From Vairimorpha necatrix (taxonomy: Eukaryota), in assembly GCA_036630325.1 (NCBI GenBank), contig CP142736.1, positions 496,001 through 560,000 of the forward strand: a stretch of DNA of 64,000 bases, given 5' to 3'. The notes under the pieces are model-generated. The model was given only the letters and a program-made list of their open reading frames with translations. It was not told where the DNA came from and did no database searches. Shown piece after piece: positions 14,846 through 17,518 of this stretch (within the stretch, counting starts at the first letter, position 1; each line of letters starts with the position of its first letter). The translations under genes and the position numbers were made by a program.

Positions 14846-17518
14846 TCATGATAGATTATCTGCCATACAATTTTTATTACCATCTATATGATTTAGTGAA
14901 AAAATAAATTCATTTAACAACAATTTCCATCTATTAATTCTTGATGTTTCTATTTTATTTTCATAGATACAATTTTTACTATCAGTATAAATCTCTACAT
15001 AAGATCCTTGGATTATGTTTTTAAAATTGAGCATAGATAAAACAATTGCCAAAAATTCCTTCTCAACAATACTGTAATTTAATTCTGGACCAGAAAATTT
15101 TTTACTATAATATCTAATGATTTTATCCTTTTGTGTTAGTGTACTTCCTAAACCTATTTCGCTCGCGTCAACGTGTAATGTAAATTTACTATTGTAATCG
15201 GGAAATGATAACATATGATTACCTAAAATCCACTCTTTAATTCTGTCAACTTCCTTTCTCATTTCGGTCGTTATTTTAATTTTATTTTCATTCTTGTTTT
15301 TTAACATATCTGTTAATTTATTAATCCTTATCGAAAGATCTGGAATAAACTTTCTGTACCAGTTTATCACTCCTAACAGTTTTTGTAAATCCTTTTTCGT
15401 TCTTATTTCTTTCTCGAATATTCTATTATTTAAATAATTAGTTTTTGGAAAAATTCCTTCGTGATTTATTTTGTAACCCAAAACTTCAATTTCTGGTTGA
15501 AAAAACTTCGATTTTTCGAAATTTATTTGGACATTTTTGCTATATAAAGTTTCTAGTATTTTTTCTACGGAAATTAAATGACTTTCTTTTGTTTTATTAT
15601 AAATCACAATATCATCTATGAAAACAAATACATTATCGAAATCTCCTAAAATGTTTGAAATATTTCTTTGAAATAATTTTGGACCGGGCTTAATTCCAAA
15701 GGGAATTCTCTTGTATTGCCACTGTTGTCCTAATAAAAAAAACGATGTATATTTCTTGCTTTGTTCATCTATTTTTATCTGATTAAATCCGTTACTTAAA
15801 TCAATCTGCGTAAAAAATTTGTTAGATCCCATTATTGTTAGACAATCCTCAATTTTGGGCAATATCCACGGGTCATCTTGTAAAGCTTTATTTACTTCCC
15901 TATAATCTACTACTAAACGTAAATCTTTATTTTTCTTTTCTATAAAAAATGCAGGGCTTATTATATCAGAAGAACTCTTTTCAATTATATCTGCATCTAA
16001 AAGTCTTTTAATTTCCATTTTCGCCTTTTCAATATATTTAAATGGAACTGTATAGGTAATCTTCTTTGTTTTTAAAACTGGTTGTATTACATTAAACGAA
16101 GCTAGGTTTGTTTTCATAGAGGTAAATTTTTTGTTTTCTTTAATATAGAAGTCTAATAGTTTATTAAATTCTTCGCTTTCGCTAACCTGACATAATTTAT
16201 TAACTATTTCTTTATCTAGCAATTCCTCAGCATTTCCCTCTTTATGTACCATGTCAATTCGTAGTCCATCTAATTCTACCGTTCCTTCGGCGTAATCTAA
16301 CTTTGCACAATGCATGTCAAGAAATTCGTTCCCTAAAACAAAATTAACGGGTAATTTTTCTAAAACGCAAAATTTTACTTCAAAAGGTTTTTCTTTTATC
16401 GTAACAACAGTATTGACCATTTCATTGGATTCTGCTGTTTCATTATTTCCAAAAATGGTTTTAATTCTAGCACATTCTTCTTTCTTTAAATTAAATTCAT
16501 TAACTGCGCTTTTAGTAATATAATTTCTCCTTGATCCGCTATCTAATAGCATTTTCACATCCTTATTACCTATTTTTCCTATTACAGTAATGTCTTCGGG
16601 ACATTGGCTACGTTGTTTAATAATCATATTTTTATCCTTGTGATCTGCAAATTCAGGCAATCTTTTTTTATTCTGTAAGGCGTAACAACGCCTGGTATCA
16701 TGAGTATAGTTACTCTTATGAAGTGAGCACCATTTCGGGTTATTAAATTGAGTATTTCTGTTATAATCAAAATTTTCTTTTTCATAATGGGTATTGGGTT
16801 TCTCGACTTTAGTTAAAATTTCATTTTCTATTAGAACAAGGTAATTATAAATTTCATAAATTTCCTTACTTATCATATTTTGTCTTGTTAATTCTAAATG
16901 TGTGAAATCTCCTAGTCCCTTTAAAAATACTTCTTCCATTTTATGCAGAGCTTCTCTTTTTTTTAGATCATTATAATACGAATAACTGTTAAGTCTTTCC
17001 TCGATTGTTTCTTTATATTCTTTGATACTAAAATAACTTATTTGGCTTGTATTATCTAATTCACGTATCGCATGTCTTTTTTGTTCCGGTGGATAAATAA
17101 AATTCAACAGTGACTTTCTTAATGCAATATAAGAATCTGATGGTAAATAATCTTTTCTTGGATCGTGTATACAATCCATGTAAATCAAAGCCATTTGTTC
17201 GTCATTCCAATCATTTGCTTTAGCTAACATCTCAAATTTTTGGAGTTGATTTATGGTTAAATCTTGTTGAATATCATAAATGTTATAAATTTTTACTTTG
17301 CTCTTAACTGCAGTTCCTTGTATATTTTTTTCAAATTCTGTATGTTCTTTTTCTTTCTTTTCATCTTTGATATGAGTTTTCCTCGTTGAATTCAACTTGA
17401 GGTGGTCACGAGGGATGAACCCTCGTTGAAAGTAGGCCTCTAGCAAACTACTTGTAAACGGCTCCTTGGGCCTTGTTTGTTTATTATTTAAAAAATGTTT
17501 ATTGTTGTTTTTCTGCAT
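14846..17518 (-). CDS. gag-pol: Gag-PR-RT-RNase H polyprotein (890 aa) ending at an in-frame UGA
   Basis: WCSLHKSNYTHDTRRC knuckle, LLDSGS, QIDLSNGF, FIDDIV, HVDASEIG, YTDSKN. Ends MADNLS-TGA. Confidence 0.95.
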   Translation of the reverse strand: MQKNNNKHFLNNKQTRPKEPFTSSLLEAYFQRGFIPRDHLKLNSTRKTHIKDEKKEKEHTEFEKNIQGTAVKSKVKIYNIYDIQQDLTINQLQKFEMLAKANDWNDEQMALIYMDCIHDPRKDYLPSDSYIALRKSLLNFIYPPEQKRHAIRELDNTSQISYFSIKEYKETIEERLNSYSYYNDLKKREALHKMEEVFLKGLGDFTHLELTRQNMISKEIYEIYNYLVLIENEILTKVEKPNTHYEKENFDYNRNTQFNNPKWCSLHKSNYTHDTRRCYALQNKKRLPEFADHKDKNMIIKQRSQCPEDITVIGKIGNKDVKMLLDSGSRRNYITKSAVNEFNLKKEECARIKTIFGNNETAESNEMVNTVVTIKEKPFEVKFCVLEKLPVNFVLGNEFLDMHCAKLDYAEGTVELDGLRIDMVHKEGNAEELLDKEIVNKLCQVSESEEFNKLLDFYIKENKKFTSMKTNLASFNVIQPVLKTKKITYTVPFKYIEKAKMEIKRLLDADIIEKSSSDIISPAFFIEKKNKDLRLVVDYREVNKALQDDPWILPKIEDCLTIMGSNKFFTQIDLSNGFNQIKIDEQSKKYTSFFLLGQQWQYKRIPFGIKPGPKLFQRNISNILGDFDNVFVFIDDIVIYNKTKESHLISVEKILETLYSKNVQINFEKSKFFQPEIEVLGYKINHEGIFPKTNYLNNRIFEKEIRTKKDLQKLLGVINWYRKFIPDLSIRINKLTDMLKNKNENKIKITTEMRKEVDRIKEWILGNHMLSFPDYNSKFTLHVDASEIGLGSTLTQKDKIIRYYSKKFSGPELNYSIVEKEFLAIVLSMLNFKNIIQGSYVEIYTDSKNCIYENKIETSRINRWKLLLNEFIFSLNHIDGNKNCMADNLS

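Follow-up and report, generated by a model that had tools for sequence, protein, structure and literature searches.

The start of reverse transcription is a defining trait of retroelement lineages, for which few solutions are known: priming by the 3' end of a tRNA, by a tRNA half, or self-priming of the Tf1 type. In Tf1, the element's own RNA is paired to a site by the U5 segment of the long terminal repeat (LTR) and freed by a cut, and the site is regenerated from the primer; the transcript begins with the complement of this site, which is no palindrome. Palindromes are also known as the dimer initiation site (DIS) of retroviruses and the PAL sequence of Ty1, and some retroviruses have a palindrome inside the primer site. 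Described here is a 12-nt palindrome at the primer-site position of two Ty3/gypsy elements of the microsporidian Vairimorpha necatrix, designated element 1 (13566-17626, minus strand) and element 2 (55195-56863, plus strand); both lie in a stretch of 64,000 nt (GenBank assembly GCA_036630325.1, contig CP142736.1, positions 496,001 to 560,000 of the forward strand; hereafter the window, numbered from its first letter).

Self-priming of the Tf1/sushi type has been predicted also for the Tcn1 and TAR lineages (PMC6317226, PMC6934838), half-tRNA priming is given for copia, Ty5, Osser and Bianca (PMC6317226), and dimerisation palindromes for Ty1 and retroviruses (PMC6844567, PMC8096270). The GalEa copia elements (2017, BMC Genomics 18:410, PMC5445492) have no tRNA site; the palindrome (A)CTGATCAGT or (A)CTAATTAGT stands directly after the 5' LTR, with variants mainly at the mirrored 3rd and 6th bases. 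Its authors proposed the palindrome in the primer-site role and found no described model to fit (PMC5445492). The term Conserved Hairpin Site was met in one other paper of the literature searched, which discusses it and offers no mechanism (PMC6934838). For microsporidian LTR elements, no description of the primer site was found in the literature searched, the results of which did not include the 2006 account of Nosema bombycis LTR elements; the main text of Parisot et al. 2014 (PMC4202319) does not mention primer, primer-binding site (PBS) or tRNA.

The site after the 5' LTR of elements 1 and 2

The 5' LTR of element 1 ends with ...CCTCA at 17398 and is followed by a spacer A (17397), the 12-nt palindrome GTTGAATTCAAC (17385..17396, minus strand) and GAGG (17381-17384). 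The 5' LTR of element 2 ends with ...CCACA at 55372; a spacer A (55373), the 12-nt palindrome GTTAAATTTAAC (55374..55385, plus strand) and GAAG (55386-55389) follow, then ATG. The layout common to both is LTR-terminal CA, A, a perfect 12-nt palindrome and GARG. The two palindromes differ at the mirrored positions 4 and 9 (G-C in one, A-T in the other), and a third transition is located in GARG. Within the first 100 nt after the 5' LTR, neither TGG nor any other conserved block was found in either element; a primer site for a tRNA 3' end (TGG...), as expected of Ty3/gypsy elements, is thus lacking in both. A preliminary description of this DNA had claimed a perfect 12-bp palindrome one nt after both 5' LTRs, a compensatory G-C to A-T pair, a change that is non-synonymous in gag, and the want of TGG; sequences and LTR borders were confirmed on each point, the non-synonymous change being Ser to Leu (TCA to TTA) in the open reading frame (ORF) that crosses the site.

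The pattern GTTRAATTYAAC occurs 3 times in the window (0.12 expected; at least 3 in 0/100 shuffles), and 2 of the 3 occurrences lie 1 nt past a 5' LTR; a chance origin of the pattern at the LTR borders is unlikely. The site is a conserved island between two elements with dissimilar LTRs (no similarity between the LTRs of elements 1 and 2 in blastn) and gag proteins that are merely 23-35% identical; the use of codon ACG is common to both, and beyond the 17-mer the elements are without resemblance. The third copy of the pattern (14707-14723, minus strand) is an exact GTTAAATTTAAC within the stretch of element 1 that encodes integrase, and is in a different frame; flanks included, it agrees with the element 2 site at 16/17 bases, and it is probably due to chance. 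In element 1, the 10-mer TTCAACGAGG (sense strand) is found twice, in U5 (17421-17430) and as the 3' half of the palindrome plus GAGG (17381-17390); the two copies are in different reading frames, and element 2 is without such a repeat.

Element 1 is bounded by a 5' LTR (17398..17626, minus strand, 229 nt, TG...CA) and a 3' LTR (13566..13794, minus strand, 229 nt) of 100% identity (230 nt aligned), with the 5-bp target duplication ACCTC (17627-17631 and 13561-13565) and the polypurine tract GGGGGCAGAA (13795-13804, minus strand) preceding the 3' LTR. The gag-protease-reverse transcriptase (RT)-RNase H ORF (14849..17518, minus strand, 890 aa; matches to RVT_1, RT_RNaseH and aspartyl protease) shares its frame with the integrase ORF (13808..14845, minus strand). 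Pfam matches along 17518..13808 follow the order protease, RT, RNase H, integrase, i.e., that of Ty3/gypsy (Metaviridae), and the direct LTRs of the TG...CA type, target-site duplication and polypurine tract of that group are present; the repeat of element 2 begins with TATG, not TG. The two ORFs of element 1 are parted by an in-frame TGA (14846-14848, minus strand) despite the identical LTRs; it may be either a recent defect or a programmed read-through codon. Element 2 is non-autonomous, with a gag-like ORF only; its LTRs (55195..55372 and 56686..56863, plus strand, 178 nt each) are 99% identical over 178 nt and flanked by the target duplication CTTAC (55190-55194 and 56864-56868). Contigs of 4 sequencing runs were inspected in the region 17200-18900: one 251-nt contig of run X1 covers 17200-17426 with zero differences, which only shows that the junction is real and says nothing about variation of the site; none of the 40 variants listed for these contigs, beyond which there are 17 more, falls at 17381-17397.

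The gag ORF of element 1 starts at an ATG in the LTR (17518, LTR position 109) and continues through U5 and the palindrome; U5 and the putative priming site are therefore coding sequence. The palindrome is read as TTG, AAT and TCA, preceded by the last base of a Lys codon (G) and followed by the first two of a Thr codon (AC), i.e., (K)-L-N-S-(T); in element 2, (K)-L-N-L-(T) is encoded. The N-terminus of element 1 is ...S-L-L-E-A-Y-F-Q-R-G-F-I-P-R-D-H-L-K-L-N-S-T, and its LTR-encoded residues are kept in the closest database proteins (N-I-L-E-I-Y-F-K-T-G...N-L-N-S-K and S-Y-L-E-L-Y-F-K-H-G...N-L-N-S-K), so that the open frame through U5 is not a matter of chance. The motif S-[IL]-L-E-x-Y-[FL]-x-x-G is encoded in U5 of element 1 (17398-17518), in shortened form in that of element 2 (55306-55372), and in that of an outer element into which element 1 is inserted (18524-18640); it is kept in proteins of several microsporidian genera. 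Two more LTR-like stretches encode it (~39370-39625 and ~45590-45700, both minus strand; NILEMYLKNGDITPVHVK, NLLENYYKNGHVPRIHDN); unrelated sequence follows each, and they are probably solo or 3' LTRs. No further 5' LTR-site junction of this lineage was found in the window.

Another gypsy family of the window has LTRs of ~50 nt, followed immediately by a classical tRNA-type primer site, TGGGGGCGATACCGAATC (46126..46143, plus strand); the lack of TGG is thus a trait of the lineage of elements 1 and 2 and not of the genome. This short-LTR family is represented by 46077-49226 (plus strand) and a diverged sister copy, 37593-34506 (minus strand), with its primer site at 37545 downward. Its gag ATG spans the LTR border, being composed of the last A of the LTR and TG of the primer site.

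Codon covariation among gag homologues

With gag residues 1-300 as query, a full search by HMMER yielded 102 cluster representatives (E ≤ 0.001); the homologues looked up by name were from the microsporidia Vairimorpha apis, V. necatrix, Nosema granulosis and Dictyocoela muelleri. A hidden Markov model (HMM) of the N-terminal motif matched 47 of 113 sequences (110 database proteins and three window translations). The Leu column was aligned in 39, of which two were removed (P0067, match in the RT region; P0099, a fragment, query residues 147-235), and the final set consisted of 34 database proteins and the three window elements. Homologues have x-[LM]-[NSIT]-[SL]-x conserved at the site. With the five codons designated c1-c5 and their bases p1-p3, the pairs of the palindrome are c3p2-c3p3, c3p1-c4p1, c2p3-c4p2, c2p2-c4p3, c2p1-c5p1 and c1p3-c5p2.

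Codons that form a perfect 12-nt palindrome, in register with that of element 1, are available to 34/34 aligned database windows (29/29 distinct); shuffling of the columns gave a mean of 14.9/34 and a maximum of 24, with 34 reached in 0/5000, and the background compatibility of any 5-residue window in these proteins is 3.3%. The residues at c3 are N (22), S (6), I (4), T (1) and L (1), corresponding to AAT, AGC, ATA, ACG and TTA; K, R and M never occur. At c4, S is found in 31/34 and L in 2 (TCA, TTA); the one T (ACA), in NLLTK, pairs with TTA at c3. Where c2 is Leu, the c5 residue (K, I, T, M, N, R or S) can have a codon that starts with A; where c2 is Met, it (F, L or S) can have one that starts with T. 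The second base of c5 is a pyrimidine where c1 is Lys (c5 being I, T, M, F or L) and a purine where c1 is Asn (K, N or R). In 34/34 windows, the residue preceding c1 is compatible with a codon ending in C (25% of background residues are not), and in 33/34 a codon starting with A is possible at c1, which is consistent with the CA of the LTR. Eleven extra windows at the site, unaligned by the HMM, are all compatible; they were found by eye and carry less weight (ten were located before the compatibility test, and one, P0067, was taken from its output). From the codon register, the palindrome predicted for N-L-N-S-K is TTTGAATTCAAA, and that for x-M-N-S-F has the core ATGAATTCAT.

In a weakly supported FastTree phylogeny (47 rows), L/M at c2 and the first-base class of c5 switch 6 times each, always together (37/37 rows), and 7 switches each are seen for K/N at c1 and the second-base class of c5 (21/21 rows); the independent contrasts over all branches number 6 and 7, every one in the predicted direction. 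Maintenance of palindromy in further families, set out in the preliminary description as the check on its claim, agrees, indirectly, with the protein sequences, every aligned window being compatible and partner codon positions covarying. Compatibility and covariation together favour a site that pairs with itself, and its palindromy appears, from the protein alignment, to be family-wide.

Contig collections were searched for relatives. In viral contigs (IMG/VR), the pol protein query found no relatives; the 13 matches there to a 19-nt pattern are therefore probably due to chance. Query A1 gave 6 loci in metagenome contigs (≤36% identical, the gag N-terminal motif in none) and no loci in genome contigs; query A2 gave 80 loci in viral contigs (motif in none at E ≤ 0.5) and 80 in genome contigs, with no credible motif match at E ≤ 1 and only two weak domains in L164. 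The closest genome-contig locus for query A2, L100, ends before the site. It is a 3.7-kb contig (32% G+C) in an Anaerovoracaceae metagenome-assembled genome (MAG), its gag-pol sharing 31% identity with that of element 1 (residues 98-890, E 9e-100), and it is probably a eukaryotic contamination of the bacterial bin. Many other MAG contigs from the query A2 scan also carry gypsy-type pol genes.

Proposed priming by the palindrome and rival explanations

The right edge of an LTR is the start point of minus-strand DNA. Since the LTR ends 1 nt before the palindrome, the primer must pair with this 12-mer. An even chance is given to the palindrome being the minus-strand priming site of a microsporidian Ty3/gypsy lineage that gave up the tRNA primer. 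Somewhat more tentatively, an undescribed mode of priming is proposed, in which the site of one packaged genome would pair with that of the second genome and one strand would be cut, no host RNA being involved; the site would be kept within the gag frame by compensatory codon changes, and the GalEa site may be explained in the same way. The partner would be the same 12-mer on the second packaged RNA copy (less likely, the same RNA folded back), for which reason the site would have to stay palindromic. At the 3' edge of the duplex, the RNase H of the element's own RT would then presumably, by analogy with Tf1, cut one strand, and synthesis from the new 3'-OH would proceed across the spacer A and on into U5 and R of the partner. 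Plus-strand strong-stop DNA would copy the 12 primer bases and, the sequence being a palindrome, regenerate the site for the second jump. Pairing of two packaged genomes followed by cleavage had been suggested in the preliminary description; the missing tRNA-type site, the palindrome at the U5 border and the codon covariation speak for the pairing, and cleavage and priming we infer.

Self-pairing of the site gives energies of -16.8 and -12.2 kcal/mol; in 40-nt RNAs, the homodimer is preferred over two hairpins by about -11 to -12 kcal/mol. The monomer folds into a 4-bp stem with an AAUU loop, and the stem is lengthened where the last U5 bases pair with those after the palindrome (CCUC/GAGG in element 1, GGAUAC/GUAUCC in element 2). 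With the site, the LTR segments of elements 1 and 2 form duplexes no better than those with shuffled sites (a fraction of 0.28 and 0.87 of the shuffles did as well or better).

An internally deleted relative, the outer element into which element 1 is inserted, has its 5' LTR at 18524..18860 (minus strand), its 3' LTR at 12743-13079 (minus strand) and the target duplication ATCCC. At the primer-site position, directly after its 5' LTR, it carries a 52-nt inverted LTR copy (18472..18523, minus strand), a perfect reverse complement of positions 177-228 of its own LTR that ends with TCAAAT. The first six bases, ATTTGA, are also those expected from the N-L codon pair of the family; at the deletion junction, the protease sequence is overlapped by the last ten. 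Another copy, in run X1, agrees up to 18481 and then diverges, and the depth of the 52-mer against that of the LTR is 2.8 vs 26 (X1) and 0 vs 6939 (X2); near-zero depth marks it as a one-off structure of this copy. One may picture its origin in this way: a fragment of the element's own RNA, with ...CUCAAAU at its end, would have annealed to the first bases of the site and served as primer; this primer would then have been copied into the plus strand, and a jump on 10 nt of microhomology would have produced the deletion. If this is right, the 52-mer is a fossil of self-RNA priming in this lineage.

Several points weigh against priming by the palindrome. The homologues are related to each other, and contrasts at well-supported branches number 2 and 3, with sign tests that are not significant (p 0.5 and 0.25); codon compatibility means that palindromes are possible in the homologues and is not proof of their presence in homologue DNA; the HMM seeds were picked by the analyst, who was aware of the motif. 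In five predicted proteins, the first residue is the M of the motif (MNSK, MNSI, MISK, MNSL, MISL), and if that M is a true ATG, the fifth pair is broken in MNSK, MNSI and MISK. The hairpin form has a stem of 4 bp only. A symmetric cut would strip the site from the template, and an asymmetric one would be required, one RNA keeping the site. The 52-mer is a one-off of one deleted copy and may stem from an unrelated rearrangement.

The strong homodimer energy would be expected equally of an RNA dimerisation or packaging signal like the retroviral dimer initiation site, with something else as primer. Palindromes near primer sites act in the dimerisation of Ty1 and retroviruses (in part, PMC6844567), and the pairing of U5 with bases past the palindrome (CCTC/GAGG, GGATAC/GTATCC in DNA) would present it on a stem. 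Still, an LTR element needs a primer paired directly after U5, where no other candidate lies within 100 nt, and an LTR edge 1 nt away from the palindrome, as seen in both elements and deduced from the codons for the whole family, is expected of a priming site and not of a dimer site; a signal of this kind is considered unlikely. The same border position would suit a function in the DNA itself, or initiation that is de novo or depends on a protein, the palindrome being a symmetric site for a dimeric protein (integrase, RT or host factor). Perfect palindromes are typical of dimeric DNA-binding proteins and this one adjoins the end processed by integrase, but the bases of such sites are usually kept, whereas the pairs inferred here change (T-A to A-T, A-T to G-C) with complementarity retained; we know of no precedent for a dimeric-protein palindrome at the U5 border among LTR elements, and the explanation is very improbable.

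Those inferred changes bear equally on priming by a host RNA, be it an internal piece of a tRNA, half a tRNA or some other small RNA, in the manner of copia or Ty5. Half-tRNA primers do exist in Ty1/copia lineages (PMC6317226), and transitions account for all three differences between the window elements, in view of which the preliminary description had allowed for a single host RNA pairing with both sites by G-U wobble. Wobble cannot absorb the inferred transversions (Leu TTR with A-starting c5 against Met ATG with T-starting c5), and the idea is therefore disfavoured. Any such primer would itself need the 12-nt palindrome; pairing-preserving transversions and changes of the central pair (c3 AAT, AGC, ATA, ACG) would require many palindromic host RNAs; the 17-mer fits, in our own reading, neither an anticodon arm nor a T arm; and the single tRNA-like gene of the window shows no match to the site even with 3 mismatches. 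Host RNA priming is accordingly highly improbable. In a last explanation, the nucleic acid would have no function, a conserved gag peptide (LNS) being encoded and the two window copies being palindromic by chance. The protein is indeed under selection here, since, of all columns in an alignment of 20 gag sequences, Ser of LNS alone is invariant, and LE.Y[FL]..G next to it is conserved as well. The peptide leaves unexplained, however, that Leu/Met at c2 predicts the first base of c5 and Lys/Asn at c1 its second base, across residues without chemical kinship (K, I, T, M, N against F, L, C), that the synonymous choices AAG, AAT and ACG are common to both window elements, and that so few occurrences of the pattern are expected; this explanation is hardly credible.

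Other window content and comparison with described systems

The window has a G+C content of 31% and is packed with transposons. Several repeated transposon-like families are present (21400-22450 vs 59470-62780), together with a fragment of a Tc1/mariner-type DDE_3 transposase (60953-61474, minus strand). ARAGORN located a tRNA-Met (CAT) at 49409-49480 (plus strand), which may be a degenerate or unusual tRNA gene; no Rfam family reached its gathering score in the whole window.

The occurrence of the same logic in gypsy and copia elements suggests a general, convergent way to dispense with a host primer, for which site-to-site pairing plus a cut would be a concrete model; the protein-level signature allows the pairing to be traced without DNA. 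The overlap of U5, putative priming site and gag coding fits the compaction of microsporidian genomes. LTR finders that require a tRNA-type site will miss or misjudge this lineage.

The half-tRNA elements share with elements 1 and 2 a site without initial TGG; theirs matches an internal tRNA stretch and is non-palindromic. A self-complementary RNA of the 5' region able to join two genomes is the likeness to DIS and PAL, but elements with these keep a separate tRNA primer site, which is here occupied by the palindrome; a retroviral-type DIS lies in a hairpin loop apart from the primer site, and here the palindrome itself forms stem and loop at the primer-site position. With Tf1, the proposed mode would have in common independence from tRNA, the element's own RNA as primer, its release by a cut and regeneration of the site from the primer. 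The complementarity of the Tf1 site to the 5' end of the transcript or to an LTR segment was not found by LTR pairing in elements 1 and 2, the site being self-complementary instead (the start of transcription is not known here); LTR-to-site complementarity of this kind is seen only in the aberrant outer copy. In the integrase of element 1 no Tf1/sushi chromodomain was detected, only rve and Integrase_H2C2 being matched at E ≤ 0.001.

GalEa resembles elements 1 and 2 in a palindrome directly after the 5' LTR that replaces the tRNA site and in the same G-C to A-T swap. GalEa is a Ty1/copia element of Pezizomycotina, whereas the present elements are Ty3/gypsy of microsporidia, with integrase following RT-RNase H; its palindrome consists of 9 nt plus the last A of the LTR, against 12 nt after a 1-nt spacer here; and its inverse-complementary box CHSeq2, 12-41 bp downstream, with which a hairpin is formed, has no counterpart here (within 110 nt, neither a 12-mer with up to 3 mismatches nor a 9-mer with up to 1 is present in either element). 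Unlike the GalEa palindrome, that of elements 1 and 2 is part of the gag ORF. GalEa is the nearest description and Tf1 the nearest mechanism, the LTR-to-site complementarity that defines Tf1 being replaced here by self-complementarity; a palindromic site at the primer position, reported once before in a fungal copia element without a mechanism, is now found in unrelated microsporidian gypsy elements.

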